The translations under genes were made by a program, and so were the position numbers. Shown here one piece after another: positions 27,158 to 60,724 of a DNA stretch of 64,000 nucleotides (position 1 is its first letter; the number at the start of each line of letters is the position of its first letter). This stretch comes from Myxococcota bacterium. GTDB taxonomy: Bacteria > Myxococcota_A > UBA9160 > JAFDDA01. The DNA lies in NCBI GenBank assembly GCA_965228475.1, contig OZ245817.1:1024001-1088000 (forward strand), given 5' to 3'. The notes below the pieces were generated by a model. It saw only the letters and a program-made list of their open reading frames with translations, was not told where the DNA came from and did no database searches.

Positions 27158-27214
27158 TACGGAGCGGGGGAGCGGCCGTGACGCGGCCCGTCACGCCAGC
27201 CGCCGCTTCGCGTA
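27158..27214. promoter_or_regulatory. Back-to-back ECF-type promoter motifs
   Basis: Minus GTCACG-N15-CGTA (27182-27158) and plus GTCACG-N15-CGTA (27190-27214). Confidence 0.8.
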
Positions 27215-27250
27215 GTACCGGGCAGGGCGGTGGTGGGAGGAGAACGCGGC

Positions 27251-27481
27251 ATGGAAGAACCCGAACGGGCCTATGTGCCTCAGGAGCCCTCGACGGGTCT
27301 TGGAGCGTCGGGACGCTTGGCCTTCGCCGTCTTCGCGTTGGCGGCCGCCTACTTCCTGTGGACCGAGCACCGCGCCCACGTGATCGAGTTTCTCCCCTGG
27401 GGGATCCTTGCGCTGTGCCCGCTGATGCACGTGTTCATGCACCGTGGCCATGGTGGCCACCGCGGGGGCGGTGCGTCGTGA
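27251..27481 (+). CDS. DUF2933 family small membrane protein
   Basis: AAYFLWTEHRAHV...LALCPLMHVFMHRGHGGH; GGAGGAG RBS. Confidence 0.85.
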   Translation: MEEPERAYVPQEPSTGLGASGRLAFAVFALAAAYFLWTEHRAHVIEFLPWGILALCPLMHVFMHRGHGGHRGGGAS

Positions 27482-28137
27482 GTCATGGGTCCGACTACGG
27501 CCTCTGGTCGCTCGTCCTGATCAACTCGGCTGTCTTCATCCTGTTCGCCTTCAGCTTTGCCAAGCCGCAGACCACGCGGGACTGGCGGTCGTTTGGGGCG
27601 TTCTCGGCGTTCCTGGTGGCGCTGTTCGCCGAGATGTATGGCTTCCCGCTAACGATCTATCTCCTTTCGGGCTGGCTCGGCCGGCGGTTTCCGGAGACCG
27701 ATCTCTTCTCGCACGAGTCGGGCCACCTGTGGCACACGCTCTTCGGCTGGGAGGGCGACCCCCATCTCGATCCCTTCCACATCGTGAGCTACGCGCTGAT
27801 CGGCGGGGGCTTCTGGCTACTCTCGATCTCCTGGCCGGTCCTCTACCGGGCGCAGAGGGAGGGTCGCCTGGCGACCACGGGCCCGTACGCCCGAGTGCGC
27901 CATCCGCAGTATCTGGGCTTCATCGCGATCCTCGCGGGCTTCCTCTTTCAGTGGCCGACGCTGATCACGCTGGCGATGTTCCCGGTTCTCGTCTTCATGT
28001 ACGTGCGCCTGGCTCTTCGCGAGGAGCGAGAGGCCACGGCCGAGTTCGGTCAGGAATACGAAGCGTACGCCCAACGCACGCCGCGCTGGATCCCGGCCTT
28101 CTCGCGCACCTCTCGGGCCGAGAGCCCGGCCTCATGA
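27478..28137 (+). CDS. Isoprenylcysteine carboxyl methyltransferase family membrane protein
   Basis: ALFAEMYGFPLTIY, LATTGPYARVRHPQY, REE...FG..Y..Y; GTGA overlap with the DUF2933 gene. Confidence 0.88.
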   Translation: MSHGSDYGLWSLVLINSAVFILFAFSFAKPQTTRDWRSFGAFSAFLVALFAEMYGFPLTIYLLSGWLGRRFPETDLFSHESGHLWHTLFGWEGDPHLDPFHIVSYALIGGGFWLLSISWPVLYRAQREGRLATTGPYARVRHPQYLGFIAILAGFLFQWPTLITLAMFPVLVFMYVRLALREEREATAEFGQEYEAYAQRTPRWIPAFSRTSRAESPAS

Positions 28138-28147
28138 GGCATCCGGT

Positions 28148-28972
28148 GTGCGATCGATCGGCGGTGGGACGTCTGCACCGGGGGCGTTCGAGGTTGGACC
28201 GATGATGACCCCGAAGACCGCGTCTCTCGCACCCTGGCAGCGCGTCGTCAAGGCGTTCGCACGTCCGCTGGTCCGCCGCGCGACCCGAGAGATCCTGCAG
28301 GGGCGACTGCTCGATCCGGAAGACGCCAGCCGAGGGCGCTGGCTCCGCTCGGACGTCCGAGCGTTTCGCGGCGCCACTTGGCAGCGAGTCGACGAACTCC
28401 TGCCCAGGGCCGGCCTGGACCGGCTCCCCACCTGGGGAAGCCGGCTGAACGTTTTCATGGCGGTCGTCACGACCGCGGCCTACCAGGAGATGCTCGACCG
28501 TGGCATCTCCCGCGACTACGCCGCGACGCTCGTCGGCGACGTCGGCTGGAAGATCTACGCGTGGATGCTCACGGCATCGGCGATTCCTGCCCGTCTGCTG
28601 ACCCGATCGCCGGAGCGGCGGCTGCGCTGGACGCTCGACCTGCTGATGTGGTTCCCGTTCAGCGCGCCGGGTGCGCCGGCCTACGAGGTCCGGGCCTGGA
28701 ACGACGGCGAGAGGGTCTTCACCTATTGGACCCATTGCCCGCCCCAAACCTTCGTACGCTCGCTGGTGGACGCTGGCAACGACCGCGGCGAGCTCGACGC
28801 TTTCTTTCGTTCCTGGTGTCTATACGACTGGGCCGGAGCCGACCTCCTCGTTGGCGATGGCGAGCGCGGGCACTACGAACGGCCGCGCACTCTCTCTCGC
28901 GGGGACGACGTGTGCGACATGTGCTGGTGGGCTCGTCGATGCGCCGACAGAGGCGTCGAGACGACCGATTGA
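28148..28972 (+). CDS. Hypothetical protein, ATC-hydrolase-like C-terminal Cys pattern
   Basis: HCPP...WCLYD...RPRTLSRGDDVCD; true start may be ATG 28202. Confidence 0.6.
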   Translation: MRSIGGGTSAPGAFEVGPMMTPKTASLAPWQRVVKAFARPLVRRATREILQGRLLDPEDASRGRWLRSDVRAFRGATWQRVDELLPRAGLDRLPTWGSRLNVFMAVVTTAAYQEMLDRGISRDYAATLVGDVGWKIYAWMLTASAIPARLLTRSPERRLRWTLDLLMWFPFSAPGAPAYEVRAWNDGERVFTYWTHCPPQTFVRSLVDAGNDRGELDAFFRSWCLYDWAGADLLVGDGERGHYERPRTLSRGDDVCDMCWWARRCADRGVETTD

Positions 28973-29003
28973 ACCTAGCCTCTTGCGGCAGAAGGGAATC
29001 ACC

Positions 29004-29345
29004 ATGATGAGGAATGCGATCGTACTGGCCGTGGGCCTGATGCTGGCCCTCGGCGGGCCCTCGGCGTTGGCTGAGATGGACCACTCGGGGCACGGCTCGA
29101 GCTCCGCAAAGAAGATGGACCACGGGTCGATGGGACACGGTGGGATGTCCCACGGCAAGGGCGTGCACGCGATGCACACCCAGATGCAGGCCCTCCACGA
29201 CCACTCGAAGATGATGGAAGAGATGAAGGATGGCGCCGCGCTCCGGGAGGAGATGAAGAAGCACATGCGGATGATGGACGAAATGATGGAGATGATGATG
29301 CAACACACCATGAAGCTGGGAGCCAGCGGCCAGCCGGGCTCCTGA
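29004..29345 (+). CDS. Secreted Met/His-rich small protein
   Basis: Signal peptide ending ALA-EMDH; MDHGSMGHGGMSH and HMRMMDEMMEMMMQH. Confidence 0.8.
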   Translation: MMRNAIVLAVGLMLALGGPSALAEMDHSGHGSSSAKKMDHGSMGHGGMSHGKGVHAMHTQMQALHDHSKMMEEMKDGAALREEMKKHMRMMDEMMEMMMQHTMKLGASGQPGS

Positions 29346-29532
29346 GTAACCCGACCGGAATCGCGGATCAACGCGACGGAAGGGCCGGTCGAGCGTCGAT
29401 TGTAGAATCGAGCAGACGAGGCCGGCGGTCGGATGGAGCGAGCGACCTCACGCGCCGACGGTCCAGGAGCAGCCTGGCGCGTGGCTTGCACCAAGAGTGC
29501 TCGTTCGATGACTTGAGCGAAAGTAGGGAGAG

Positions 29533-32320: not shown

Positions 32321-32377
32321 TCGGGGCGGTCGGAGGGCTGGTGATGCGAGCCTCGGGCCGCGCCCGATCGCTGTCCC

Positions 32378-32989: not shown

Positions 32990-33038
32990 CCCTCGATCCG
33001 CGCGGGTGGCATCGGTGGCGGTGCCGACGGGGAGCGGT

Positions 33039-34397: not shown

Positions 34398-34499
34398 GAG
34401 TATCCTCACAGCGTCTCCGAGGCAGCAGAGAGGCCCACGAACGCCGTGCCAAGTCAGAAAGCCATACTCGGAGGTCCGGACGCTCTGCGCGCTGTGGTG

Positions 34500-34524
34500 G
34501 TCACCGCGACGCGTCCCCTCCGTA
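34500..34524 (+). promoter_or_regulatory. ECF-type promoter motif
   Basis: GTCACC-N15-CGTA. Confidence 0.75.
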
Positions 34525-34620
34525 ATTTACATGCAACACCGCGGCGCTACCGATGGAACGAAGGGGCTCCGCTCCTGTTGCTGACGGGGGAGGCTCCTGC
34601 GGCGATGCGGGACACCCCGG

Positions 34621-35313: not shown

Positions 35314-35327
35314 TTTCGTTGGTGACT

Positions 35328-36041: not shown

Positions 36042-36043
36042 GC

Positions 36044-36802: not shown

Positions 36803-36804
36803 GG

Positions 36805-38721: not shown

Positions 38722-38777
38722 GCACGCTCCTGGGATGGACCTGCACCTCCACGGGAGAGGGCCTCGCTCGATGGGAA

Positions 38778-38802
38778 TACGGGCAATGTCATCGGACGGG
38801 AC
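38778..38802 (-). promoter_or_regulatory. ECF-type promoter motif with one mismatch
   Basis: GTCCCG-N15-CGTA followed by TT on the minus strand. Confidence 0.6.
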
Positions 38803-38832
38803 GGAGGAACGCCGTCTAACCGCCAGGTCCCC

Positions 38833-39903: not shown

Positions 39904-39980
39904 TCCCACGCCTGCGCGTCGTCTCGATTCCATCGAAGAGCCTGAACCTCCTGCTGGCAACCGCAGGCATCCATCGATCC

Positions 39981-40041
39981 TACGGCCCGTGGGAACCGCG
40001 GTGACCTGTGTCCGGCGTCACCGATCCGTCGCCGGCCCGTA
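39981..40041. promoter_or_regulatory. Back-to-back ECF-type promoter motifs
   Basis: Minus GTCACC-N15-CGTA (40005-39981) and plus GTCACC-N15-CGTA (40017-40041). Confidence 0.8.
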
Positions 40042-41399: not shown

Positions 41400-42107
41400 A
41401 TGAACGTCGCGATGGACGACGAGCGCGTACCGTCGGTGGTCCGAGAGAGCGTCCGCACCGGCATCTTCCAGGCCATCCGCCGGGACGTGGAGCTGCGCGG
41501 CGGGCGGACGGCCCACCTGCTGCTCATGGCGGCCGCCCTCGGCGTCGCCGGTGCCGTCGGCGTAACGGCCCTGGTCTCGGGCCACCCCTTCGATCACCAT
41601 CCCCCTTGGCATGTGACGGTCGTCAGCTCGGTATGGGCTGGTCTCCTGTTCGTGAGCTTCGCGGTCGTCCTGCTCGAAATCCGTACGCCACGATTGCAGC
41701 TCGCGAAATCCGCTGCCGTAGGGATCCTCGGCCTCGGGGTCGCCGGCCTCTGCGGTGCCGCCTGCCCGGACCCTCACTTTCTGATCTGGTGGTCCACCAC
41801 GCCCGTAGGGGACGCGGCGGCCCGCGCCGGGGGGCCCGCGGCGAGTGCGTTCTGTCTCGGCCTGCTCAGCACGGCGGGTTTCGCCACGGTCGCCGCGTTC
41901 GTCGTGCTTGGCCCCGCCGGTTGGGACCGGTCGACGCGGCTGCTCTCGGCGGCCTTCCTACTCCTGCTCCTGCTGCCCGGCGTGGCACTCCAGTCCGTCG
42001 GGGCGTCGTGGCTCAGCTTCGCCGCGTGGGCAATCGGAGCGGGGGGCGGTGCAATCGTGGGAGTCGGGGTCGGCCACCGCACGCGAGTTCGGCTGGTCGC
42101 CCAATAG
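41400..42107 (+). CDS. Membrane protein, putative anti-sigma factor, orphan paralog of 59960-60670
   Basis: Shares [22 protein letters not shown], CGAxCPDxHFL and PGVALQS with 59960-60670. Confidence 0.7.
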   Translation: MNVAMDDERVPSVVRESVRTGIFQAIRRDVELRGGRTAHLLLMAAALGVAGAVGVTALVSGHPFDHHPPWHVTVVSSVWAGLLFVSFAVVLLEIRTPRLQLAKSAAVGILGLGVAGLCGAACPDPHFLIWWSTTPVGDAAARAGGPAASAFCLGLLSTAGFATVAAFVVLGPAGWDRSTRLLSAAFLLLLLLPGVALQSVGASWLSFAAWAIGAGGGAIVGVGVGHRTRVRLVAQ

Positions 42108-44896: not shown

Positions 44897-44921
44897 TACG
44901 ACTGGCGAAGGCAATGGTGAC
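44897..44921 (-). promoter_or_regulatory. ECF-type promoter motif
   Basis: GTCACC-N15-CGTA on the minus strand. Confidence 0.78.
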
Positions 44922-47411: not shown

Positions 47412-47759
47412 CTAGCGCTTCTTCGCCTCTGCCTCGTGGAGCTCCGCCAGGGCCTCGTACTCCTCGGCCATGCCGGCGTATCGATCCGAGATGCTCTGGC
47501 AGTGCTGCTTCATGCGAGCGCGCTGAACGTGCTTTCCACCCCCGTAGGTCATGCCCATCCGTTCGTGGCGCTCCCGCTCCTGGCGCGCTTCCTCGGCCTT
47601 CGCGCGGTAGTGCTTCGCGAGTGCCATGTGCTGGGCCGGCGTCTCGGCCATCTCGACCACGAGCTGTTCGAGGGAGTGGCCGTCTTCGCCCGCGCTAGCG
47701 ATCCCGCCGGGAGCGACCAGGGCCAACACGAACAGGGTTGCAACGATCTTCTTTGCCAT
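47412..47759 (-). CDS. Secreted small helical His/Met-containing protein
   Basis: Signal ending ASA; ETPAQHMALAKHY...HERM...MKQHC...LAELH; AAGGA RBS. Confidence 0.8.
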   Translation of the reverse strand: MAKKIVATLFVLALVAPGGIASAGEDGHSLEQLVVEMAETPAQHMALAKHYRAKAEEARQERERHERMGMTYGGGKHVQRARMKQHCQSISDRYAGMAEEYEALAELHEAEAKKR

Positions 47760-47826: not shown

Positions 47827-47851
47827 TACGGGAGCCCGCGGCGCAGGTGAC
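47827..47851 (-). promoter_or_regulatory. ECF-type promoter motif
   Basis: GTCACC-N15-CGTA on the minus strand. Confidence 0.78.
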
Positions 47852-47871: not shown

Positions 47872-49098
47872 CTACCTCGCGCCAGGGGGCCACGTCGCCC
47901 GCAAGAGGCCGGGGCCGAGAAGCGTCGTCGCGGTGATGACTAGAACCAGGGCGCTGAAGAGATCCGGTGCCAGGATGCGCTCGGCGAGGCCGACCTGAGC
48001 GAAGATCAGCCCGACTTCGCCACGGGGGACGAGGGCGCTTCCAACGGCGAGTCGAGGCGCCTCTAGCCCTCGGACGAGACAGGGTGCTGCCAGCTTGCCG
48101 GCCACGGCCGCGACGGTCAGGAGGCCTGCGAGCCCGAGCATCGCTCGCCCCTCGGCCGTGGCCCACGACAAGGCGTCGAACGAGATCGAAGCTCCGACGA
48201 GGACGAAGAAGACCGGTGTGAAGAGCTCGATCAAGGGCTCGAGCTCCGACGTGATCCACTCGCGCTCGGGGTGGCGAGCAAGCGCGACGCCCGCGGCGTA
48301 GGCGCCGATGATCATCTCGAGCCCCGAAGCTTCGGCCGCCGCAGCGGTCAGCAGCAGGGCGCTGAAGACCAGCACGAGGAGCGAAGTCCGCGCGCCGGTC
48401 CACCGAGTCAGCCAAAGACTCGCCCGGGCGATCGACCGCCCGGCCAGAAGGGCGAGGATCAAGAATGTCGCGGCCCGCGCCACCGCGGTGACCACTTCCA
48501 TGGGGATGTTGGTGGAGGACTGGCCCAGCCCGATCAGCGCGGCCAGGAGAACGAGTCCGACAACGTCGTCGATGACCGACGCCCCGAGGATCAGCGTGCT
48601 CGTCCGGCTCGCGCCTGCCCCGAGTTCCTCGAGGACGGAGGCGGTGACCCCGATGCTCGTTGCCGTGAGCGTCGCGCCGACGAAGATCGCCGGGATCGTT
48701 GGCAAGCCCAGCAACAGGGCTGCCAGGGTGCCGAGAAGGAGCGGCGCGAGCATCCCGAAGGCGGCGAGCAGGAATGCCGGACGCGCGACCCGGCGTGCAT
48801 CGTCGAGGCGAGTCTCGAGACCGATCCGGAAAAGCAGGACGCACAGCCCGATCTGCGCGAGATCGGGAAGCGCAGATCCGCTGTCGCCGTGAGCCCCATC
48901 CGTCACGAGCCCCAAAACGGCAGGGCCCAGACAGACGCCCGCAAGAAGATGCCCGACGACTGCGGGAAGCTTCGCGCGGCGGGCCAGCGCCCCGAACAGC
49001 ATTGCTGTCAGGAGGATCACGGGTAGCAACCAGTGGAGTCCCACGAGTCCCTCCGACGCCGAGAGCGCAAGGATCCGCCCATTGGCGGTCGACCCCAT
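47872..49098 (-). CDS. Cation:proton antiporter (CPA2 family)
   Basis: LLFRIGLET, TATSIGVT, GASVIDDVVG, PRGEVGLIFA; start uncertain. Confidence 0.9.
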   Translation of the reverse strand: MGSTANGRILALSASEGLVGLHWLLPVILLTAMLFGALARRAKLPAVVGHLLAGVCLGPAVLGLVTDGAHGDSGSALPDLAQIGLCVLLFRIGLETRLDDARRVARPAFLLAAFGMLAPLLLGTLAALLLGLPTIPAIFVGATLTATSIGVTASVLEELGAGASRTSTLILGASVIDDVVGLVLLAALIGLGQSSTNIPMEVVTAVARAATFLILALLAGRSIARASLWLTRWTGARTSLLVLVFSALLLTAAAAEASGLEMIIGAYAAGVALARHPEREWITSELEPLIELFTPVFFVLVGASISFDALSWATAEGRAMLGLAGLLTVAAVAGKLAAPCLVRGLEAPRLAVGSALVPRGEVGLIFAQVGLAERILAPDLFSALVLVITATTLLGPGLLRATWPPGAR

Positions 49099-49186
49099 GC
49101 GCCGAGGCCAGGATACACATCGAGCTGAAGTCGAAGCGTTCGACCCTGCGGCCGATCGACATACTCCGGATTTTTCTTGCGCCCCG

Positions 49187-49211
49187 GTCACCCCGTCACG
49201 GCTGGTCCGTA
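49187..49211 (+). promoter_or_regulatory. ECF-type promoter motif
   Basis: GTCACC-N15-CGTA. Confidence 0.78.
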
Positions 49212-49247
49212 TTTTGTTTACGGGGGCCCGAACTGGGGAGGGGCAAG

Positions 49248-50585
49248 GTGTCACACCGCGTTTGGCGATGGACTCGAGGATTGCTGGTCCTGGGCGCCCT
49301 CGGACTCGCTGCGCCGCAAGAGAGCCGAGGTGACGCGTTCGAAGAGCTCAAGGAGCTCGTTCGGGAGCAGAGCAAGCAGATCCAGGCGCTCCAAGACCAG
49401 GTCCGGCGGCTCGAGGACGACGCTGCGGCGCCGGTCTCGCGGCAGGTCGTCGACACGATCGACGAGAGGATCATCGACTTCGAGAACCACCCGAGTTCGA
49501 AGCTGTTCATCAGCGGCTACGGGGCGATGGGGTACAACGACTCGGACGACGAAGACGGCTCCTTCGGGGCATTGTTCGTCCCGATATTCCACTACCAGCT
49601 CAGCGACCGGCTTCACCTGACGGGCGAGGTCGAGTTCGACCTGCGCGGGGACGACCTCGACATCGAAGTCGAGTACGCCCAGATCGACTTCCTGCTGAAC
49701 GACTATCTCACCGTCACCGCAGGGAAGTTCCTGCTTCCCTTCAACGCATTTAGCGAGCGGATCCACCCCGCGTGGATCAACAAGCTCCCCTCGCTGCCGC
49801 CGATCTACGGGTCTCACGGGAGTGGCGGCGGCATCATCCCCGTTCTGAGTGATACCGGGCTCCAGCTGCGAGGAGGCGCGCGGCTCCCCTTCTCGCTCGG
49901 CGAGAACGAGCCCCGGTTGAACTACAACTTCTACGTCGTCAACGGGCCCCGAATCGAGCCCGAGTCGGAGGAAGACGAGCGCTTCGAACATCTCGCAGAG
50001 TTCCTCGAGGCCGAAGGGGCGATCGTGAGCGCGGACGATCTGCTCGAGGAGCTCGAGATCGGCCACGGCGAAGGCACGGAGATCGAGTTCGGGGAGACCT
50101 TCCGCGACAACAACAGCAACAAGGCGATCGGCGGGCGCATGGGGTTCCTGCCGGTGCCCTGGCTCGAGGCCGGCGGCTCGTTCATGCGGGGCGAGTTCGA
50201 CGACGGCGATGACCTCGACTTCCACATGTACGGATTCGATCTCGGTGCGAGGGTGGGCCCCTTCGACCTTCGCGGCGAGTACATCCGGCTCTCCTATGAG
50301 CTCGAAGAGGGCGGGACGGAGCGAACCGACGGCTTCTATACCCAGGTGGCCATGAAGCTCCGGGACGCGATCGAGCACTTCGGCGCCGCCAGTCCGCCGG
50401 TCATCGACCGCACGGAGCTCGTCTTGCGATACGGCCAGGTCGACAACGGCGCCGACTACGACGAGATCAGCCCGGGGATCGTCTACTGGATTCGGCCGTC
50501 GGTGCCGCTGAAGCTGGCCTACTCGTTCCGAAACGGAGACCGAGACGACGACGAGCTGCAAGTTCAGCTCGCGTTCGGCTTCTGA
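49248..50585 (+). CDS. Outer membrane beta-barrel porin-like protein
   Basis: Signal, short coiled coil, amphipathic strands (EYAQIDF, AGKFLLPF), C-terminal QLAFGF, acidic loop. Confidence 0.8.
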   Translation: MSHRVWRWTRGLLVLGALGLAAPQESRGDAFEELKELVREQSKQIQALQDQVRRLEDDAAAPVSRQVVDTIDERIIDFENHPSSKLFISGYGAMGYNDSDDEDGSFGALFVPIFHYQLSDRLHLTGEVEFDLRGDDLDIEVEYAQIDFLLNDYLTVTAGKFLLPFNAFSERIHPAWINKLPSLPPIYGSHGSGGGIIPVLSDTGLQLRGGARLPFSLGENEPRLNYNFYVVNGPRIEPESEEDERFEHLAEFLEAEGAIVSADDLLEELEIGHGEGTEIEFGETFRDNNSNKAIGGRMGFLPVPWLEAGGSFMRGEFDDGDDLDFHMYGFDLGARVGPFDLRGEYIRLSYELEEGGTERTDGFYTQVAMKLRDAIEHFGAASPPVIDRTELVLRYGQVDNGADYDEISPGIVYWIRPSVPLKLAYSFRNGDRDDDELQVQLAFGF

Positions 50586-50592
50586 GGAGGGG

Positions 50593-51150
50593 GTGATGCT
50601 TCGCTACCTGATCTTCGTTCCCGTCCTGCTCGCGGTTGCCTGTTCCGGCTCGGGCACTCCGCGCCAGGCGCCGATCGACGGCGCGACGGTCTACGCGAAC
50701 AACTGCAACCGCTGCCACGAGTTTCGCTCGCCGACGGAGTTCAATGGGCCGCAGTGGTCGATCATCTCGACGCACATGCGTCTGGTCGGCGGGATGCCCG
50801 CGGACGAGTCACGGGCGGTCTACGAGTATCTGAAGTCACAGCACCACCCTCCCTACGTGCCCGATGGGGCGGAAGGGGCTTCGCTTTCGGTCGATCCCGA
50901 CTCAGGCCGAGCGCTCGTCCACGAGCGCGGGTGCATCGGCTGCCACGTGGTGGAAGGGCGGGGCGGCAAGATGGGGCCCTCGCTCGACCGCATCTCCGAG
51001 CGACGGTCCGAGGAGTTCGTGGTGCAGCAGATCCTCGACCCCAAGGCGAACAACACCACGAGCCTCATGCCCAATCTCGGGCTCTCTCGGGCCGACGCCC
51101 AGGCGATCTGGGCCTACCTGAGTAGCCTGGATGGAGGAGGCGGAGTCTGA
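50593..51150 (+). CDS. Diheme cytochrome c lipoprotein
   Basis: Lipobox LAVAC; CNRCH...HM and CIGCH...MP; GAGGAGG RBS. Confidence 0.9.
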   Translation: MMLRYLIFVPVLLAVACSGSGTPRQAPIDGATVYANNCNRCHEFRSPTEFNGPQWSIISTHMRLVGGMPADESRAVYEYLKSQHHPPYVPDGAEGASLSVDPDSGRALVHERGCIGCHVVEGRGGKMGPSLDRISERRSEEFVVQQILDPKANNTTSLMPNLGLSRADAQAIWAYLSSLDGGGGV

Positions 51151-51307
51151 TTCCTCATGGCTCGGGGAGGCGGAAGAGGCCGTCCATTCACGTTCGCGGC
51201 CGCGAACCCGCGGCGCAGCTGCGGCATCTCAAGTCGTCGTGCCGGGTGGCCGATCGTGGGCGTACGGCGTCAGGGTGGCGTACCTTCGGTCGGCAGGAGC
51301 CAGCCAG

Positions 51308-51739
51308 ATGAGACTCAGGGCAGCGATCGCATTTGCCTTCATCTTGAGTGGGACAGCCCCCTTCGACGCCGAAGCGTGCGGAACGGACGCGGCTGAGATC
51401 CTCCCTCCTGCGGCCGGCGCCTCGCACGAAGATCACGAGCATTCGCACGCCGCCGGTGCTTCCCACGGGAGCCCGGTTCACGCCGAGGTGCCTGGTCCGA
51501 ACTCGCATGAGCACCCGGACGACCACGGCTCTTCCTGCTGTCGTGCCGACGCGGGGAGCCAGCCGATCCTTCTGGGTGCACAGACGCCTGCGCCGCGCGT
51601 CCATTGGGTCTCGATCGCTGTCGATCCTGCCCCTGGCGTCGGTTGGCAGAGCCCCAGCATCGAGCGGAGCCGGGCGCGGTGGCTCGAGCCACCGCCACCG
51701 GACCCCTACGCGAAGACGCGCCGACCCCTTCTCATCTGA
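51308..51739 (+). CDS. His/Cys-rich exported protein (CzcI/DUF2946-like position)
   Basis: Signal, HEDHEHSH, HEHPDDH, CC, C-terminal EPPPPDP; directly upstream of a czcC-like gene. Confidence 0.65.
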   Translation: MRLRAAIAFAFILSGTAPFDAEACGTDAAEILPPAAGASHEDHEHSHAAGASHGSPVHAEVPGPNSHEHPDDHGSSCCRADAGSQPILLGAQTPAPRVHWVSIAVDPAPGVGWQSPSIERSRARWLEPPPPDPYAKTRRPLLI

Positions 51740-51809
51740 TCCCCTTCAGGTTCGAACGCCGTAGCGGCGCTTCCCGGCACGTCCCGGGTTTCTCGAATCT
51801 GGAGGAGAC

Positions 51810-53091
51810 ATGCGATCCGCTTTCTACGCCGTCCTCGTGGCGGCGTGGGCCCTCGGGACCCCAGGCCCCGCAAGGGCCGAGTCAGCCCAGTATGCACTGA
51901 CGGCCGAAGAGGCCGTTCGTGAGGCCCTGGTCGCCAACCGCGACCTCCAGGCTGCACGGCGCGATCGAGGCCGCACGTGGGCGGCGGCTCCAGGCTGGCC
52001 GGCTCGAGAACCCCGAGCTCGAGCTGGCCTACGCCGACGACTTCGCCTTCGAGTCCAACGGCGAGCGCACCGCGTCGGTGGCCTTCTCGCAGAGCTTCCC
52101 CGTGACCGCGCGCCTCTCCCGCGAGAGGAAGGTCGCGGCGAAGGACGTCGAGATCGCGGCGGCGGAGGTCCACAACTTCGCTCGCGAGCTCGTGGCCGAG
52201 GTCGAGAGCGCCTTCTACCGCGCCAGAACCTGGGACGAGCGGCTCGCAGTCAACCAGGAGCTCATCGGCTCGGTGCGAGCTGTCGAGCAGGCCACTGGCC
52301 GCAGATTGCAAGCCGCCGAGGTTTCTCCGGCCGAGGTGAGCCTCCTGCGGATCGAACGGCTGCGCCTGGAGCAGGAGTCGGTGCGGCTTGGGCAGCAGGC
52401 CGAGGTCTCCCGCGCGACCCTCGCGCGACTGCTCGGTCGAGACGCACCCGGGTCGCTCGAGCTCGTCGGGGAGCTCGACCCGGGCAACTCGCCGGCGGGT
52501 TCTCCGGGTCGGATCCGTCCGGACCTGGAGGCGGCGAGCCGCGGCGTCGAGCGGGCCGAGGCCGACCGCGCCCTGGCGCGCAGCGAGGCCTGGGAGGATT
52601 GGACGGTGGCCTTCGGCTACGACCGCGAGCGCGCCGTCTTCGATCGCCCGATCGGCGTCAAGGAGGACGAGTTCCTCGGCTTTGGACTCCGCATTCCGCT
52701 CCCCCTGTGGAACCGGCAGCAAGGCCGGATCGCCGAGGCCGAGGCCGAGTTCCGGCGGGCTCGCCACGCGCACGGCGCCCTGGCGCTCCGCGTCGACGAG
52801 GAGGTTCGGGTCGCCCAAGCCGAATTCGAAGCCCTCCGGGCGAATGTCGATGCCTATGCGGACTCGATCCTTCCCGAGGTTTCGCGCACGCGTGAGCTCA
52901 TTGAGCGCGGATATCGTGAGGGCCTGGTCGGGATCGCCGACCTCCTTCAGGCGCAGCGCCAATTCAACGAGACGCGCTCTCTCTACCTGACGCTGCTTGG
53001 CGATCTCCGCGCGGCGGCGATCTCGCTCGAGGCGGCCGTCGGCTCGAGCCCACATCTTCGCGCCGCACCTGGCGCCCGAGGCACACCATGA
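51810..53091 (+). pseudogene. CzcC-like TolC protein, frameshifted near 51960
   Basis: First frame gives signal plus EALVANRDLQAAR; the continuation AIEAARGRRLQAGRLENPEL is in another frame (gct gca cgg C gcg atc gag). Confidence 0.85.
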
Positions 53092-54236
53092 AGCGGCGAA
53101 TCCTGCTCCACGCGCTGGCCGCGCTGCTGCTCGCAACTCCGGCCCACGCCCACGAAGGCGAGGATCACGCGGCCGCGCCGGGGACAGAGGGGGCCGCAGT
53201 CGCCGGCGGGGGGCCGATCGAGGTCTCCGAGGTCGCCCAGCGCAACCTCGGCCTCGTCGTGGTCGAAGCCGACCTCCAGCCGATCGATACGACGCTGCGG
53301 GTGATCGGCGAGATCCAGGCCGACCCGGCGCGCTCGGGCACCGTCACGAGCCGCATATCGGGCCGCGTCTCCGGGGTCTTCGCCCAGGAAGGTGAGAGCG
53401 TCGAGAAAGGGGAGCCGATCGTCGAGGTCGAGAGCCTCCAGCTCGGGGATCCGCCGCCCCGCGCCCGCTACCGCTCGCCCGTGGCCGGCGTCGTGACGGA
53501 TCGACACGTCGTCCTCGGAGCCGACGTGAGTCCGAGCCAGCATCTCTTCGAGATCGCGGACCTGACGGAGGTTCTGGCGGTCGGGCGCATCTTCGAGGGG
53601 CAGGTCGGTCGAGTCGCCGTGGACCAGAAGGTGCGCGTTCGCGTCCCGAGCTACCCGGGTGAGGTCTTCGAAGGGGTCGTCGACCGGCTCGGCGGGAAGC
53701 TCGATCCGAATACGCGTTCGCTGGCGCTCTACGCTCGCGTCGCAAACCCCACGGGCCGCCTTCGGCCGCACATGCGCGCCACCCTGACCGTGGTCACGGG
53801 AGGCGCCGACCTCGCCCTCGCCGTGCCGTGAAGCGCGGTGCTCGGCGAGGCAGGGCACCTGTTCGTGTTCGTGCAGGACGAGGAGCAGGCGACGCGCTTC
53901 GAGCGTCGGCCGGTCGTACTCGGCGTCGAGAACGACCGCGCCGTCGAGGTGGTCGACGGGCTCCTCCCGGGCGAACGGGTCGTCTCGCAGGGCAACTACT
54001 CGCTCCAATATCTGGCGCCCGTGGCCGACGAGACGGCGGATCACGAGCACGAATCCTCAGCGAACGAGTCTCACGAGGGCTCGGTCGCTCCCGAAAGCGT
54101 TCCTCTCGAGTCAGGCGCGCGGCGAGGCGTGGTCGTCTGGGGGCTCGGTGCGGTGGGGCTGCTCCTGCTGGGCGGCGCGGCTCTCCACGCCGTCCGCACC
54201 CGCTCAGGCAGGCCGCGCGAGGTTTCGCGGCCATGA
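53088..54236 (+). pseudogene. CzcB-like adaptor interrupted by an in-frame TGA
   Basis: LAVP*SAVLGEAG with TGA at 53829-53831; track ORFs 53088-53831 and 53838-54236 share a frame. Confidence 0.88.
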
Positions 54237-57200
54237 TGAGCCGGCTGATCGAGTTCTCGCTGCGGAACCGGCTCTTCGTCGTGGCGGCTGCCACGCTCGT
54301 CTTCGTCTACGGGGCCTTCGTGCTCCGGGATCTGCCGGTAGACGTGTTCCCCGACCTGAATCGCCCGCTCGTCACGGTGCTCACCGAGGCCCCGGGCCTC
54401 GCACCGGAGGAGGTGGAGACGTTGGTGACGTGGCCGCTAGAGACGGCGGTCAACGGGGCGCCAGGTGTCATGCGCGTGCGGTCGAACTCGGGGATCGGGC
54501 TCTCGATCCTGTTCGTGGAGTTCGACTGGGGCATGGACATCTACCGGGCGCGCCAGCTCGTCCAGGAGCGCATCCAGCTAGCCGCCGAGCGCCTGCCCGA
54601 AGAGATCACGCCGGTCATGGGGCCAATCTCTTCGATCATGGGCGAGATCCTGCTGATCGGCGTCTCGAGCCCCGAGGGCCGGACACCGCCGATGGAACTC
54701 CGCACGATCGCCGACTGGGAGATCCGACAGAGGCTCCTGACCATTCCCGGCGTGGCGCAGGTGATTCCCATCGGCGGCGGCGTCAAGCAGTACCAGGTCC
54801 TGGCGGACCCCGAGCGCATGGCGGCCTACGGCGTCACCCTCGAAGAGGTCCTCGACGCGGCAGAGCGGTCTCAGGTGAACACGCCGGGCGGGTTCCTCAA
54901 CGCGGGGCACCGCGAGGCGCTCGTCCGCAACATCGCCCGCACGCGCGACATCGACGAGATCGCCGCCACCGTGGTCGCTACCCACGGCGAGGTCCCCGTT
55001 CGGCTGGGGGATGTAGCCCGCGTCGCCTTCGACCGACAGATCATGCGGGGCGACGCGGGCGTCGACGGGCGGCCCGCGGTCATCGTCTCCGTGCAGAAGC
55101 AGCCCGGTGTCGACACGGTGGCGTTGACCGAACGCGTCGAAGCCGCCCTCGCGGAGATCGGCCGGGGTCTGCCCAAGGACGTCGAGCTGAGCGTCCTCTT
55201 CAAACAGGCTCGCTTCATCGACGCTGCGATTGCCAACGTCGAAGAAGCGATTCGGGACGGGGCGGTCATGGTCGTGATCGTCCTGTTTCTCTTCCTCCTC
55301 AACGTGCGCACGACGCTGATTACCCTCACGGCGATCCCCTTGTCCTTCGTCGCGACTGCGATCTTCTTCCAGTTCGCGGGAATCTCGATCAACACGATGA
55401 CCCTGGGTGGCCTCGCCGTCGCCATCGGCATGGTCGTGGACGATGCGATCGTCGATGTCGAGAACGTCTTCCGGCGGCTGCGCGAGAACCGGCACGCCGA
55501 GCGGCCCCGGCCCGTGCTCCGGGTGATCGCCGACGCGTCGGCCGAGGTCCGCAACTCGATCCTGTTCGCGACCCTGCTGATCGTGCTGGTCTTCATCCCC
55601 CTGTTCGGCCTCGCCGGGATCGAGGGCCGGCTCTTCGCTCCGATCGGCATTGCCACCATCGTCGCCATGATCGCCTCGTTCGTGGTCTCCCTGACCGTGA
55701 TCCCGGCTCTCTGCTCGTACCTGCTTCCACGGATGAAGCGAATGGAGACGGAGGAGGACGGCTGGCTCGTGCGTCACCTGAAGGACCTCGATCGTCGCTT
55801 CCTGCTCGGCCCGGCGCTCGACCACCCGCTGTGGGCGGCTGGCATCGCGGCCGTGCTGGTCGCGGGCTCGCTGGCCCTCTACCCCGTGATGGGCAAGGAG
55901 TTCCTGCCCGAGTTCAACGAAGGGACCGCGACCATCAACGTGCTCGTGGCCCCGGGCACTTCGCTGGAGGAGTCGAACCGGACCGGCGCGATCGCCGAGC
56001 GTCTCTTGCTTGCGGTCCCGGAGATCGAGAAGACCGGGCGCCGCACGGGCCGGGCGGAGCTCGACGAACACGCCGAGGGCGTCCACTACACCGAGATCGA
56101 CGTCGACTTGAAGCCCTCCGAGCGCTCCCGTGAGGCGATCCTGGAAGACGTCCGTGAGAAGCTCGGCGGCATTCCCGGAATCGCTCTGAATGTCGGCCAG
56201 CCGATCTCCCATCGGCTCGATCACATGCTCTCCGGCGTCCGGGCCCAGGTCGCCGTCAAGCTTTTCGGAGATGACCTAGGCCTGCTCCGGGCCAAGGCCG
56301 CCGAGCTGGAAGCGGCGCTGGGCGAGGTTCCGGGCGTCGTGGACCTCCAGACGGAGAAGCAGGTGCTCGTACCGCAGGTGCGGATCGCGCTCGACCGGAA
56401 GCGGGCGCAGCTCTACGGCGTGCAGGTCGGCGACCTCGCCGAGCTCCTCGAGACGGCTCTCAACGGGCGCATCGTGGGGCAGGTCCTCGATGGCCAGCGC
56501 ACCTACGACGTCTACGTCTGGTACGACGAACCCCACCGTCGCGACGTCGAGGCGATTGGCCAGATGTTGGTTGACACGCCCTCGGGCGAGAAGGTCCCGC
56601 TGGCCCTGCTGGCGGACGTCCTCGAGGCCAAGGGCCCGAACATCATCAACCGCGAGAACGTGCGGCGGCGGATCGTCGTCTCCGCGAACGTATCGGGGCG
56701 CGACCTCGGGTCGACCGTCGCGGAGATGCAGTCGGCCGCGGCGGACGTCGACCTCCCCCAGGGCTACTCGGTGAGCTTCGAGGGGCAGTTTCAGAGCCAG
56801 CAGGAAGCGACCCGTCTGATCGCGCTGCTGAGCGGCTTCACGCTCGCGACCATGTTCCTCCTGCTCTACACCCACTTCCGCAGTGCGGTGATCGTGGCGC
56901 AGGTGCTGCTGAACGTTCCGCTCGCCTTCATCGGGGGGCTGGCGCTCACCTGGTGGTGGGTCGGGACCGTGTCGGTCGCGACGCTCGTGGGCCTCATCAC
57001 CCTGGCCGGGATAGCCTCGCGGAACACCATCATGATGATCTCCCACTATCTCCATCTGATGGAGCACGAGGGGGAGCGCTTCGACCGGGAGATGATCGTC
57101 CGCGGCTCCCTGGAGCGGCTCGTTCCCGTCACGATGACCGCACTCGTTTCGGGGATTGCGCTGATCCCCCTCGTGCTGGCCGCCGGCGAGCCGGGCAAGG

Positions 57201-57403
57201 AGATCCTCTATCCCGTTGCTGTCGTGATCATCGGGGGCCTGCTGAGCTCGACGCTGCTGGACATGGCAGTCACTCCCGCCGTGTTCCTGCGCTTCGGCCA
57301 CCGCGCGGCCGCTCGCTATCTCGCGCGCGAGAGTGGGGACCCGCTCGATGCGGTCCCCGCACCGGCGCCACGCAGCGTGGCGCCGATGAAGGATTCCACG
57401 TAG
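54233..57403 (+). CDS. CusA/CzcA family heavy-metal RND permease
   Basis: LPVDVFPDLN, GMVVDDAIVDVEN, GRAELDEHAEG, ISHRLDHMLSG, ERLVPVTMT; ATGA overlap with the adaptor. Confidence 0.95.
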   Translation: MMSRLIEFSLRNRLFVVAAATLVFVYGAFVLRDLPVDVFPDLNRPLVTVLTEAPGLAPEEVETLVTWPLETAVNGAPGVMRVRSNSGIGLSILFVEFDWGMDIYRARQLVQERIQLAAERLPEEITPVMGPISSIMGEILLIGVSSPEGRTPPMELRTIADWEIRQRLLTIPGVAQVIPIGGGVKQYQVLADPERMAAYGVTLEEVLDAAERSQVNTPGGFLNAGHREALVRNIARTRDIDEIAATVVATHGEVPVRLGDVARVAFDRQIMRGDAGVDGRPAVIVSVQKQPGVDTVALTERVEAALAEIGRGLPKDVELSVLFKQARFIDAAIANVEEAIRDGAVMVVIVLFLFLLNVRTTLITLTAIPLSFVATAIFFQFAGISINTMTLGGLAVAIGMVVDDAIVDVENVFRRLRENRHAERPRPVLRVIADASAEVRNSILFATLLIVLVFIPLFGLAGIEGRLFAPIGIATIVAMIASFVVSLTVIPALCSYLLPRMKRMETEEDGWLVRHLKDLDRRFLLGPALDHPLWAAGIAAVLVAGSLALYPVMGKEFLPEFNEGTATINVLVAPGTSLEESNRTGAIAERLLLAVPEIEKTGRRTGRAELDEHAEGVHYTEIDVDLKPSERSREAILEDVREKLGGIPGIALNVGQPISHRLDHMLSGVRAQVAVKLFGDDLGLLRAKAAELEAALGEVPGVVDLQTEKQVLVPQVRIALDRKRAQLYGVQVGDLAELLETALNGRIVGQVLDGQRTYDVYVWYDEPHRRDVEAIGQMLVDTPSGEKVPLALLADVLEAKGPNIINRENVRRRIVVSANVSGRDLGSTVAEMQSAAADVDLPQGYSVSFEGQFQSQQEATRLIALLSGFTLATMFLLLYTHFRSAVIVAQVLLNVPLAFIGGLALTWWWVGTVSVATLVGLITLAGIASRNTIMMISHYLHLMEHEGERFDREMIVRGSLERLVPVTMTALVSGIALIPLVLAAGEPGKEILYPVAVVIIGGLLSSTLLDMAVTPAVFLRFGHRAAARYLARESGDPLDAVPAPAPRSVAPMKDST

Positions 57404-57442
57404 CGCCGGTCGAGGCGCTCGAACAAGGATGGAGGTAGGAAG

Positions 57443-58330
57443 ATGTCGAGGACGAAGTACCTGGGTCGCCTCGTTGCGATCGCCGCTCTGGCGCTGCCGG
57501 TCGCGGTGGGTGCGGACGGCGGCCAAGAGGCGCCGGGATCGGAGCACGGGGGCCACGGCGGGCATCACTCCGGGCACGCCGCTACGAGCTCCCTGTCCGG
57601 TGCCTGGGCTGCTCTGACCGGGGCGCGAGACGCCATCGCGAAGGACGTCGAGTCAGGCGCTCTGGGCGAGATCCACGCCAAGGCCGAGCCTCTACCGGGC
57701 TACGTGGCCGCTCTCCTCGAGCACTCCGGACGCCTCGACGCCGCGAAGCGCGCCCGGGTCGAGGGTGCGGCCAGGCAGCTGGAACGGGTTGCGGACGCCC
57801 TCCACGTGGCGGCCGACGGAAACGACGCCCCGCGGACGCGGAAGGAGCTGAAGCGCCTCGACAGCCTCCTCGACCTGATCCGCGCGCAGTATCCGGCCGG
57901 CGCGCTTGTGGAGAAGGAGCATGGCCACGAGGGGCACTCTTGGGCGCCGGCCGCCGATGGCGACGGCCATGGCCACGGGCGACCGCCGGTAGGAGTCGTC
58001 GAGGCCGAGCCCGCAGCGACGCTGCGCGTTCGCGCGCTCGATCCCTTCCGCTTCGAGCCGGCTCGCCTCGAGCTGAAAGCCGGAGTGGCGACCCGCATCG
58101 AGCTGGAGAATGCGGGAGCCACCCAGCACGCCCTGGTCGTGAGAACTCCCGACGGGGGCCGGGATTGGATCCATCTCCACGTTGGCCCGGGCGAGACGCA
58201 GGGAGCGACCTATCGGCTCGACGAGGTCGGCACCTATCCGGTGGTGTGCACCGTTCCGGGCCACGCCGAGGGTGGCATGATCGGGGAGATCATCGTCTCC
58301 GATTCTCGCGCGGAGCCCCATGTTCACTGA
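57443..58330 (+). CDS. Secreted helical-bundle plus cupredoxin fusion protein
   Basis: Signal, His-rich linkers; type-1 Cu ligands QHAL...CTVPGHAEGGM; GGAGG upstream. Confidence 0.85.
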   Translation: MSRTKYLGRLVAIAALALPVAVGADGGQEAPGSEHGGHGGHHSGHAATSSLSGAWAALTGARDAIAKDVESGALGEIHAKAEPLPGYVAALLEHSGRLDAAKRARVEGAARQLERVADALHVAADGNDAPRTRKELKRLDSLLDLIRAQYPAGALVEKEHGHEGHSWAPAADGDGHGHGRPPVGVVEAEPAATLRVRALDPFRFEPARLELKAGVATRIELENAGATQHALVVRTPDGGRDWIHLHVGPGETQGATYRLDEVGTYPVVCTVPGHAEGGMIGEIIVSDSRAEPHVH

Positions 58331-58347
58331 CGTGATCCGAGCCGGCC

Positions 58348-59106
58348 TTGGCTAGCCAGAGCCGTGGTCAGCGCGCTCGGCGCAGGCGGGGAACCCGAAA
58401 GCGGCACGGCTCGGGCGCGCTTGCGGCCCCCGAGGTCGAAGCCCCTCGAGTCTTCGACCACGGGGTGAAGCTCGTCGCCATTGTGACGATGGTCGCGGAC
58501 CACGTCGGGATGATCTTCTTCCCGGAGGTCGACGCGCTGCGGGTCGTAGGGCGTCTCTCGATGCCGCTCTTCGCGTATCTCGTGGCGGTGGGTATCAAGC
58601 GGACGAGCGATCGGTCTGCCTATCTGTGTCGTCTGTTCGCCCTCTTTGTGTTCTCACAGATCCCCTACGGCCTCTTCGTGGGAGACAAGCTCAACATCTT
58701 CCTTTCGCTCGCCGTTGGTGGCATGACAGCGAGCTTTCTTGCGGATCGGAAACCGGCCTGGGCACTCGTCCTCCTCGCGGCTTTTCTTGGATTCACTTTC
58801 CAGCAACCCGTCTCGTACGGCCAGGTAGGCCCCGCACTCGTCCTTGCCTTCGCTGCTCTACCCGGGCGCCCGATCGCCTCGACGCTGCTGGTGGCCCTCG
58901 TGTTCGCGACGCACGGGCTCCTGACCGGCTCCCATTTCAGCTGGATGGCGATCCCGGTCCTTCCTCTCGTGCCTCTCGTCCTCCGGTACGTCCACTGGAG
59001 GTCGCCCTCCCGTTGGCGATGGGCGTACTGGGCCTATCCGTTCCATCTGGCAGCCTTCTACGGCATTGCCTGGCATCTGGGGATCACACAGCACATCCAG
59101 CGGTGA
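58348..59106 (+). CDS. TraX-family membrane protein
   Basis: KLVAIVTMVADHVG, GRLSMPLFAY, SQIPY, LNIF, YWAYPFHL; start uncertain. Confidence 0.8.
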   Translation: MASQSRGQRARRRRGTRKRHGSGALAAPEVEAPRVFDHGVKLVAIVTMVADHVGMIFFPEVDALRVVGRLSMPLFAYLVAVGIKRTSDRSAYLCRLFALFVFSQIPYGLFVGDKLNIFLSLAVGGMTASFLADRKPAWALVLLAAFLGFTFQQPVSYGQVGPALVLAFAALPGRPIASTLLVALVFATHGLLTGSHFSWMAIPVLPLVPLVLRYVHWRSPSRWRWAYWAYPFHLAAFYGIAWHLGITQHIQR

Positions 59107-59350
59107 GCACGCGCCAGACGAAGATCGTCGCAGGTGGCCAACTAAGGGTTCACGGGCTCCTCGAGTGCGCGCCGAGGGGCGAGAGTCTACCCTCCGGCCC
59201 GATGAGGCAAATCAGCGCAGTCAGGAGCTGCCCCGGGGCATATTGCCCCGACGCTCCCAGCGACGGCCAGCCCCTTTGGAGGGCGTTTCGGCACGCCAGG
59301 TGCAGAAGGAATGCTAGTAAGTTCGGTTCGATCGACGAGGAGTGGGTGAC

Positions 59351-59905
59351 ATGTCCGACTGTGCGCTGGACGGGGCGGCTGACGAAGTCCTCATGGCGCG
59401 TTACGTCGCCGGCGATGCGAACGCGTTCGAGGCGCTGTTCCATCGCTACGAGCGCCGCGCCTACGTCTACTTCCTCAAGCGGACCGGGTCGCCCGAGCGT
59501 TCTCAGGATCTCTACCAGGAGCTCTTCCTTCGGATTCATCGCGCTCGCGACCGGTATGACCCGGCGCGGCCCTTCACTCCGTGGTTCTTCCAGATCGCGA
59601 ACCGGCTGCTCGTGGACGACCATCGCCGAGCCTTTCGAAGTCGCGAGGTGGCCATCGAGGGTCGGGAGCTCAGAGCGAGCGTTTCAGAAGGTGGCGATCG
59701 CCTTGCCGCGCGCGAGCAGCTCGACCGGATCTTCGACGAGCTGTCGCCGGACGAACGCTACGTGCTGCTCTCTGCGAGAGTCGAGGGCATCGGCTACACG
59801 GAGCTCGCCGAGCACCTCGGGAAGTCGGTCGACGCCGTCAAGAAGATGGCGTCGAGGGCCGTCCAGCGGCTGCGGCGCCTCGAGGCGTTGGAGGCCTCCG
59901 GGTAG
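59351..59905 (+). CDS. ECF RNA polymerase sigma factor
   Basis: Region 2 DLYQELFLRIHRAR...WFFQIANRLLVDDHR; region 4 YTELAEHLGKSVDAVKKMASRA. Confidence 0.93.
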   Translation: MSDCALDGAADEVLMARYVAGDANAFEALFHRYERRAYVYFLKRTGSPERSQDLYQELFLRIHRARDRYDPARPFTPWFFQIANRLLVDDHRRAFRSREVAIEGRELRASVSEGGDRLAAREQLDRIFDELSPDERYVLLSARVEGIGYTELAEHLGKSVDAVKKMASRAVQRLRRLEALEASG

Positions 59906-59959
59906 GGGGTCTCGGTCGCGGCCCCAACCTGCTGCAACGGAACAGAGACGAGAGGGAAG

Positions 59960-60670
59960 ATGGTAGGGGACGACGAGCGAACGCCCGTCGATCTGCGCGA
60001 CGGCGTTCGATCTGGGATTCTCGCGACGATCACGCGCGACGTCGAGCTACGGGGCGGCCGGACGGCACGTCTTCTGGCCGCGGCCGGGGTCGCTGGCGTG
60101 GCGGCCGCCGTCGGCGTCACGTTGTTGGTTTCGACCCACCCATTTGACCACCACCCCCCCTGGCACGTGGCGATGTTCAGCGCCGTCTGGGCAGGGCTGC
60201 TCGTGGTGAGCTTCGCCATCGCCTTTCTCGAAGTTCGGACGCCCTCGCTGCCGCTGGCGCGCGCTACTTCCGTAGGCTTGTTGGGTCTCGGACTGGCCGG
60301 GGTGTGCGGGGCCGTTTGCCCGGACCACCATTTCCTCCACTGGTGGTCGGCTTCGTCAGCTGGGGCTCCGCTGACCCAAGCAGGAGGTCTCGCACTCAGT
60401 GCGCTCTGCTTCGGCTTCTGCACGACTCTGCTCGTGGGTCTGATCTCGGCATTTCTGCTTCTGGGTGACCGGGCGCACGCCCACGTTCCCCCGAGCCTCG
60501 CCGCTGCGGTGCTCTTCGTTCTGTTGATTCCTGGCGTGGCGCTGCAATCTTTCGGGACCTCCATCGCGGTGTTCTGCGCCTGGCTGCTGGGGACAGGGAT
60601 CGGAGCCTACGTTGGCGTTGCCGGCGGCGCGCGTCTCGGTGCTCAGATCAAGGCCGCCCGACCGGGCTGA
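59960..60670 (+). CDS. Putative membrane anti-sigma factor with His/Cys motifs
   Basis: Directly downstream of the ECF sigma; short soluble N-terminus, about six TM segments, [19 protein letters not shown]. Confidence 0.72.
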
Positions 60671-60699
60671 GCGGCTCTCGCCATCGCCTTGTCGAGTCT

Positions 60700-60724
60700 G
60701 TCACCGTCGTCCACCACGGCCGTA
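60700..60724 (+). promoter_or_regulatory. ECF-type promoter motif (probably leaderless mRNA)
   Basis: GTCACC-N15-CGTA, with ATG 8 nt downstream. Confidence 0.78.

Follow-up and report, generated by a model that had tools for sequence, protein, structure and literature searches.

A putative ECF sigma factor regulon for envelope metal defense on an integrative conjugative element of an uncultured member of the Myxococcota

Introduction

How might a mobile element bring its scattered metal-resistance genes under common control? The question is raised by a 64,000-nt stretch of a Myxococcota bacterium genome (assembly GCA_965228475.1, contig OZ245817.1, positions 1,024,001 to 1,088,000, forward strand), called the window here. 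Copies of one bipartite motif precede efflux, electron transfer, and other genes in the window, which also encodes an extracytoplasmic function (ECF) sigma factor at 59351. A first-pass annotation had written the motif as GTCACS-N15-CGTA, which is GTCAC-N16-CGTA when the spacer is counted from GTCAC, as we do from here on. We consider it likely that GTCAC-N16/17-CGTA is the -35/-10 promoter of sigma 59351, running a local envelope metal-defense regulon with a membrane anti-sigma factor and a metal signal. The motif, its conservation, the co-occurrence of the genes, and the ends of the element are read from sequence; transcription, binding, and the signal are what we infer from them.

The motif in the window and the genome

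A scan of the window found nine exact copies, each at the position and on the strand first reported (Table 1), and all within 33.7 kb. The mean in 100 shuffles was 0.13 and the maximum was 1, which bears out the earlier estimate of less than one chance copy. A claimed tenth copy with one mismatch (-38802 to 38778) is also present, but its class is only about twice as common as chance (14 versus 6.6). We also scanned the window with a weight matrix trained on sites from relatives only. This ranked the -38802 copy as the top nonexact site, with 15.9 bits versus 16.2 to 23.1 for the exact ones. The matrix brought out no other convincing site in the window, nor an exact N17 one, and weaker matches were no commoner than with control spacers.

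All 10 sites lie outside likely coding sequence, with a same-strand start codon 8 to 145 nt downstream. Nine of the 10 read CGTAnT, and two pairs are back-to-back (27182/27190 and 40005/40017), as had been described. One target was misassigned. The site at -47851 had been said to lead to a cyclase gene, but the gene directly behind it has an ATG with a ribosome site at 47759 and encodes a small secreted His/Met-rich protein (47759 to 47412); the cyclase start is about 700 nt further on. Genes not checked with Pfam were called with our own dicodon caller, and their starts are approximate.

Genome-wide (5.0 Mb, one contig), there are 16 exact copies, including the nine in the window. Matches with N17 and N14 spacers across the genome were rejected as codon artifacts, with 33 of 35 and 25 of 26, respectively, inside called genes. 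Two intergenic GTCAC-N17-CGTA sites lie outside the cluster. One (G000:C1:1119003) is inside the mobile element described below and faces a convergent gene. The other (G000:C1:2508773) has a same-strand gene 122 nt downstream, which may be a remote target.

Conservation of the motif and its targets

The motif recurs where relatives of the sigma factor and its partner are encoded. Twenty-six stretches around such genes (342 kb) contained 30 N16 and 45 N17 sites, versus 0 to 2 for each other spacer between 11 and 22. Thirteen flanking stretches (260 kb) added 4 and 12. Twelve further loci that had been held out (189 kb) contained 14 and 20, with at least one site in every locus. This makes 125 sites in 791 kb, 48 with N16 and 77 with N17. 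Therefore, the spacer, which had been called rigid, is constant in the window but can be 16 or 17 nt in relatives. As in the window, the sites avoid coding DNA (85 of the 91 listed are outside called genes). The sixth base is T in 25 of the 125, and there are 24 divergent pairs within 200 nt.

Most of the related loci (22 of 26 records) are labeled as Myxococcota or Deltaproteobacteria. The sigma factor and its partner each occur in 23 of 101 genomes, and 22 genomes have both. A profile search for the partner in 401 genomes of the phylum gave 22 strong matches, all in the window's own class, and one weak match. The sigma and anti-sigma frames of one relative (L037 of G094, approximately 9200 to 10213) look frameshift-broken, possibly through assembly errors.

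At 96 of the 125 sites, a gene call was available for the next gene downstream. It most often encodes the small secreted His/Met protein (25 sites), followed by the sigma factor (14), CusC (6), the anti-sigma factor (4), and cytochrome c (4), with fewer for others; 24 of the 96 match no window gene. The conserved regulon is narrower than the one first listed: glutamate dehydrogenase (GDH), the saccharopine-dehydrogenase-like gene, the protease, and the cyclase are absent from the relatives' 96 first genes. By this comparison, we regard GDH, the protease, and the cyclase as local recruits to the putative regulon.

Assignment of the motif to sigma 59351

Sigma 59351 (184 amino acids) matches Sigma70_r2, Sigma70_r4_2, and TIGR02937 over cutoff, and no named-subfamily model is over cutoff among the 25 matches listed. 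Twenty of 36 related sigma genes have a GTCAC site in the 200 nt that precede them, versus none of 23 sigma genes linked to the anti-sigma factor NrsF. An ECF site upstream of the ECF factor's own gene is the usual sign of autoregulation (PMC7776599). Therefore, we assigned the motif to sigma 59351, and on these comparisons it is very probably the promoter that this factor reads. The core of the first-pass proposal, an ECF promoter read by sigma 59351 on a mobile metal-resistance element, holds on comparative evidence.

The membrane partner

The protein encoded at 59960 has six membrane helices, by hydropathy and in a structure model with a predicted local distance difference test score (pLDDT) of 90. 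The positive-inside rule places both ends inside, and the outward loops have no Lys or Arg. The first outer loop carries H60, H64, H65, and H69, each conserved in 44 to 48 of 51 members. Around the second outer loop are C116, C120, D122, H124, and C150, with the three cysteines in 45 to 50 of 51. The CxxxCPDxH pattern and the extra four-His loop have the look of metal ligands and not of a disulfide pair.

In a complex prediction, partner residues 5 to 28 lie on sigma residues 18 to 63, with a score of 0.83 (best of three controls, 0.00), to which likeness to solved sigma/anti-sigma pairs may contribute. That mark is reached by 116 of 157 solved pairs versus 2 of 215 mismatched ones, counts that are only rough with our own alignments. 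Contact agreement between runs was 100%, and the partner pLDDT was at least 86. Judging from this model, 59960 very likely acts as an anti-sigma factor. A second copy (41400) behind the 40017 site suggests negative feedback.

The family is unannotated. None of the 51 members matches Pfam NrsF (PF06532) at E values up to 10, and a PF06532 search of the genome finds another locus and not gene 59960. A profile-profile comparison with NrsF gave a nonsignificant probability of 1.6 to 1.8%. Language-model look-alikes are clusters in which 20 to 90% of members are labeled NrsF, which is a lead only. Partner C150 aligns with NrsF C131 only in a forced global alignment that is not significant. There is no conserved Cys in the partner near the position of NrsF C181, and C116 and C120 are extra. 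A remote kinship of the partner with NrsF seems likely. Fold searches with the partner's model gave nothing clear (no Foldseek match at an E value of 0.001; a best Z of 7.3, over two helices), and the plasmid collection had no match to the partner.

The promoter of the sigma gene

Upstream of sigma 59351 is a sigma-54-type element on the sense strand, with GG at -24 and GC at -12, 10 nt apart. Of 36 related sigma genes, 29 are preceded by the pattern GGCAY-N6-TGC (in 2 cases on the other strand), versus none of 23 NrsF-linked ones. Nineteen relatives have both elements, with the ECF -35 located 11 to 15 nt behind the sigma-54-type element (14 nt in ten). Ten others have the sigma-54-type element alone. 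The window has kept this element, at 59289, and a dyad at 59235; its ECF site is decayed or lost. Genome-wide, the GGCAY-N6-TGC pattern has 41 sites, of which 37 are intergenic. Several precede what we take, by eye, to be flagellar, pilin, and ammonium-transporter genes, the usual targets of sigma-54.

Roughly 40 nt before the element lies a dyad, a pattern picked by eye after inspection. At least 9 of its 12 positions match in 15 of 30 sequences, the window among them; a control interval gave 0 and shuffles gave 1.8. When the region before the sigma-54-type element was searched for dyads and 6-mers without bias, nothing stood out above shuffles. The genome has 27 activator-domain matches. The mobile element's own sigma-54 activator was considered as a dedicated activator and rejected: the sigma factor is present in only two of five genomes with activator copies more than 80% identical. 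A terminator scan of 49000 to 64000 was at chance level, and transcripts from the 49187 site may or may not read through into the sigma gene.

The mobile element and its metal genes

A 49-bp repeat of the 3' end of tRNA-Thr(CGT) occurs in the window and again 112.7 kb further on. Between the copies are an integrase gene (16528) and genes for TrbB, TrbE, TrbL, TrbI, a coupling protein, a DUF3363 relaxase-like protein, and ArdC. The flanking tRNA repeats, the integrase, and the conjugation genes together indicate an integrative conjugative element. On this sequence evidence, the regulon is carried by an element of 112.7 kb. We also compared a same-genus genome (G001) as a possible empty site. 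Its contig ceases to match immediately past the flanking host gene, and no tRNA is seen there.

Genes around the motif sites include cusCBA, a multicopper oxidase gene, copB, a second resistance-nodulation-division (RND) efflux set, and genes for a cupredoxin, cytochromes, CsoR, and a Cu-ATPase. In most relatives, genes for Cus, Cop, Czc-like, CsoR, and Cu-ATPase proteins again lie next to the sigma gene.

A sigma-54-type promoter lies directly before the element's trbB (G000:C1:1100550; L121), with a kinase and a sigma-54 activator a few kilobases upstream, and conjugation may be under sigma-54 control. The far end of the element (G000:C1:1144000 to 1152400; L123 and L144) has a second metal module, with an ArsR-family regulator and another RND set, without the motif. 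Left of the attachment repeat, 6692 to 15246 is a low-GC defense block with C5 methylase, MTaX1, GmrSD-like, and REase-ARP genes and a 764-amino-acid protein without a Pfam family.

Alternative explanations

Besides that of sigma 59351, at least 12 ECF-like genes are present in the genome. One of these has a true NrsF partner and the same -10 as the island motif, and the island sigma gene has no autoregulatory site in the window. Conceivably, then, another host sigma factor, most plausibly this ECF16-like one, reads the promoters and sigma 59351 does something else. We judge this very unlikely because the two systems differ at the -35. Across 24 NrsF loci from the phylum (84 kb in all), GTAAC-N16/17-CGTA occurs 17 times and GTCAC only twice. 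A GTAAC site precedes 8 of 23 NrsF-linked sigma genes, the host's own NrsF-linked sigma gene has one, and GTAAC is found in three of four proteobacterial references. No GTAAC site was found at the held-out island-type loci, whereas GTCAC clusters at the loci of the island sigma. The host's ECF16-like sigma and NrsF genes (G000:C1:1776418 to 1777774; L076) have divergent GTAAC-N16/17-CGTA sites, of which the genome has six. Island-type and NrsF-linked factors share a region-2 signature, but the sigma4 helix reads KKMASR in the former versus KVRAHR (also KVNIHR) in the latter. This recognition helix sets -35 specificity (PMC7776599), and its change could cause the one-base difference between GTCAC and GTAAC. 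It is scarcely credible that the motif is instead the operator of an ordinary transcription factor. It is neither a palindrome nor a repeat, it is strand oriented, and it tolerates exactly 16 or 17 bases. In addition, the corresponding sequence at NrsF loci agrees with the SigF promoter as mapped, GTAACC-N16-CGAA (PMC3511200).

With promoter and sigma factor paired in this way, the signal could still be thiol oxidation or another envelope stress (hypochlorite or peroxide), and the metal genes part of a wider envelope repair. In ECF16 members, periplasmic cysteines mediate the response to heavy metal or oxidative stress (PMC7826278 and PMC3511200), C150 has the forced alignment with NrsF C131, and cytochromes, a reductase, and a protease are among the targets. 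However, the partner's His loop and CxxxCPDxH resemble metal ligands, and metal efflux genes adjoin the sigma gene in most relatives. We consider this reading rather unlikely, though worth keeping in view, and favor copper or a similar metal as the signal, with less assurance than we have in the promoter itself. Several points weigh against a metal-defense regulon run by sigma 59351. The window sigma gene has no upstream ECF site, and neither do 15 of 36 relatives even when a spacer of 15 is allowed. All nine exact window sites are N16, versus the N17 preferred by relatives (77 of 125), including those with the most similar sigma factors. The relatives are kin from one class, and their site counts are not independent trials. 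Regulon membership varies among genomes and includes nonmetal genes. The presence of both a Cus-like and a Czc-like RND set does not point to a single metal. The island also has other regulators (CsoR and, beyond the window, the kinase and sigma-54 activator), so some genes are under other or double control.

Comparison with known systems

The closest design is ECF16. SigF-NrsF of Caulobacter crescentus has the mapped promoter noted above (PMC3511200), and ECF16 is described with a DUF1109 partner and GTAACC (PMC7826278). Like SigF-NrsF, the island system has a minimal ECF factor followed by a six-helix membrane anti-sigma factor with outward cysteines and a small, local heavy-metal regulon, and each half of its promoter differs by a single base. 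In a quick tree with 77 sigma factors (one frameshifted row left out), the 36 island-type factors formed one group (Shimodaira-Hasegawa-like approximate likelihood ratio test [SH-aLRT], 100). The tree placed them with 27 NrsF-linked ones, as sister or nested, apart from 14 other ECF factors (SH-aLRT, 86). Unlike ECF16, the island system uses GTCAC and KKMASR, its sigma gene has a sigma-54-type promoter, and its targets are Cus/Cop/Czc-like efflux genes. Its partner lacks the NrsF domain and the second NrsF cysteine and has the His-rich first loop and CxxxCPDxH. Therefore, by sequence comparison the system is ECF16-like in its predicted working but not a member by three tested features: NrsF domain, cysteine pair, and promoter. 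The regulon had been put forward as not recognized from earlier descriptions. We did not find this system in the literature searched either, but its design is close to SigF-NrsF.

ECF291 CnrH-CnrYX of Cupriavidus metallidurans is likewise an ECF system on mobile DNA that drives RND metal efflux. The CnrH -10, CCGTATA, resembles the island CCGTAnT, and ECF291 members adjoin multicopper oxidase and CopB genes. However, CnrH has a one-helix anti-sigma factor and a separate periplasmic sensor (PMC13492112 and PMC7826278), whereas one polytopic island protein seems to be both. The window and its relatives have the downstream six-helix partner and not the ECF291 arrangement of a one-helix anti-sigma factor and upstream sensor. 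An ECF291-like reference was far from the island clade in the quick tree, on a long branch.

CorE of Myxococcus xanthus is a copper-linked myxobacterial ECF factor that controls multicopper oxidase and Cu-ATPase genes. It senses copper with a Cys-rich tail and has no known anti-sigma factor (PMC3107203 and PMC10141476), whereas the island sigma has a membrane partner and no tail. None of 35 aligned island-type members has a CorE-like (ECF238) Cys-rich C-terminal extension. HrpL of Pseudomonas syringae is an ECF gene under a sigma-54 promoter whose own promoter interferes with it. The HrpL site is divergent and represses (PMC5263251); the ECF site of the relatives is in tandem, 11 to 15 nt behind the -12 element, and the regulons are unrelated. 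The predicted -35 of ECF41, ECF103, ECF250, and ECF288 also contains GTCAC, but their -10 elements are CGTC, TCT, GTTATATA, and TGTCTAAT, respectively, and none is CGTA. These groups also differ in their regulators (C-terminal extensions or one-helix anti-sigma factors) and hosts (PMC7826278). Literature searches on the motif, on ECF/copper/Cus, and on overlapping sigma-54/ECF promoters found no description of the system in the sources available, and groups of the 2021 classification beyond those sources may bear on this.

Features of the locus

The sites and genes are collected in Table 1. The small secreted protein (47412 to 47759) has a weak match, below cutoff, to NCBIfam LIC_10421. Its best fold match, a helical hairpin, is 5LOS (Z, 10.4; root mean square deviation, 1.7; 77 aligned), which we take to be a His-rich fungal metal-binding protein, although a literature search did not confirm this. 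Against the Atlas, it found unnamed clusters only, with scores under 0.9. The mRNA of the heme-binding protein from the 60700 site is probably leaderless. A palindrome at 61201 to 61217, just upstream of csoR and the Cu-ATPase gene, is likely a CsoR operator. Its position implies separate control of these two genes. A TraX-family gene with lower coding bias (58465 to 59106) lies between the cupredoxin and sigma genes and is not at that place in the relatives' loci.

Table 1. Window coordinates of the putative regulon and associated features
Feature	Position	Strand	Context
Left 49-bp attachment repeat (tRNA-Thr CGT 3' end)	16397..16445		Of the 112.7-kb element; integrase next
Putative ECF promoter site	27158..27182	-	Before small membrane protein and cusC-cusB-cusA
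Putative ECF promoter site	27190..27214	+	Before DUF2933 and ICMT-like gene; same strand further on, multicopper oxidase and copB
Putative ECF promoter site	34500..34524	+	Before methyltransferase
One-mismatch site (GTCCC)	38778..38802	-	Before FAD/NAD-ferredoxin reductase, membrane protein, and multiheme cytochrome
Putative ECF promoter site	39981..40005	-	Before saccharopine-dehydrogenase-like gene
Putative ECF promoter site	40017..40041	+	Before Glu/Leu/Phe/Val dehydrogenase, second anti-sigma copy, and HtrA-like protease
Second, orphan copy of predicted anti-sigma	41400..42107	+	57% identical to 59960; downstream of ECF site
Putative ECF promoter site	44897..44921	-	Before secreted protein without Pfam family (44850-44350)
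Small secreted helical-hairpin protein	47412..47759	-	Conserved His/Met/Cys; commonest target in relatives
Putative ECF promoter site	47827..47851	-	Before small secreted protein
Putative ECF promoter site	49187..49211	+	Before porin-like gene, cytochrome c, second RND efflux set, and cupredoxin
Dyad, candidate activator site	59235..59249	+	About 40 nt upstream of sigma-54-type element; position conserved in relatives
Sigma-54-type -24/-12 element	59289..59304	+	Upstream of ECF gene
ECF sigma factor	59351..59905	+	Sigma2 and sigma4 only, 184 amino acids
Predicted anti-sigma	59960..60670	+	Six membrane helices, cytoplasmic N-terminal helix, outward His and Cys clusters
Putative ECF promoter site	60700..60724	+	Heme-binding protein ATG 8 nt on; then csoR and Cu-ATPase

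A working model and its meaning

At rest, the six-helix protein 59960 is predicted to hold the sigma factor through its cytoplasmic N-terminal helix. A periplasmic signal would bind or oxidize the outward His/Cys clusters and free the sigma factor; copper or a related thiophilic metal is the likeliest candidate. Freed sigma would transcribe the RND efflux pumps, the multicopper oxidase, cytochromes, the small secreted His/Met protein, and the second anti-sigma copy, which would damp the response. The sigma gene would be fed by its sigma-54-type promoter. In most relatives, an ECF site that overlaps the start of that promoter would create an additional positive loop, which the window copy has lost.

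What appears new here, from sequence comparison, is the promoter variant, the unannotated anti-sigma family, and the tandem sigma-54/ECF promoter; the overall regulon design is known. Taken together, the findings could describe an unclassified ECF group of one uncultured Myxococcota class with a new family of polytopic metal-sensing anti-sigma factors. One -35 base, matched to a changed helix, would insulate it from a coresident ECF16-type system. The sigma-54 complex would gate a positive feedback loop, and repeated losses would have removed this loop but spared the sigma-54 element. We offer this joint reading tentatively, as possible but short of probable.

The locus would be a complete predicted switch for metal defense (sensor, sigma factor, promoter, and targets), on a movable element, in a class known only from metagenomes. 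Its predicted anti-sigma factor belongs to a family without annotation, in which the pattern of metal ligands is clear. The overlap of sigma-54 and ECF promoters raises the question of how two sigma classes share one start region. The coexistence of GTCAC and GTAAC in a single genome offers a natural test of the ECF promoter code, and the pair is also a candidate for an orthogonal switch in engineering.

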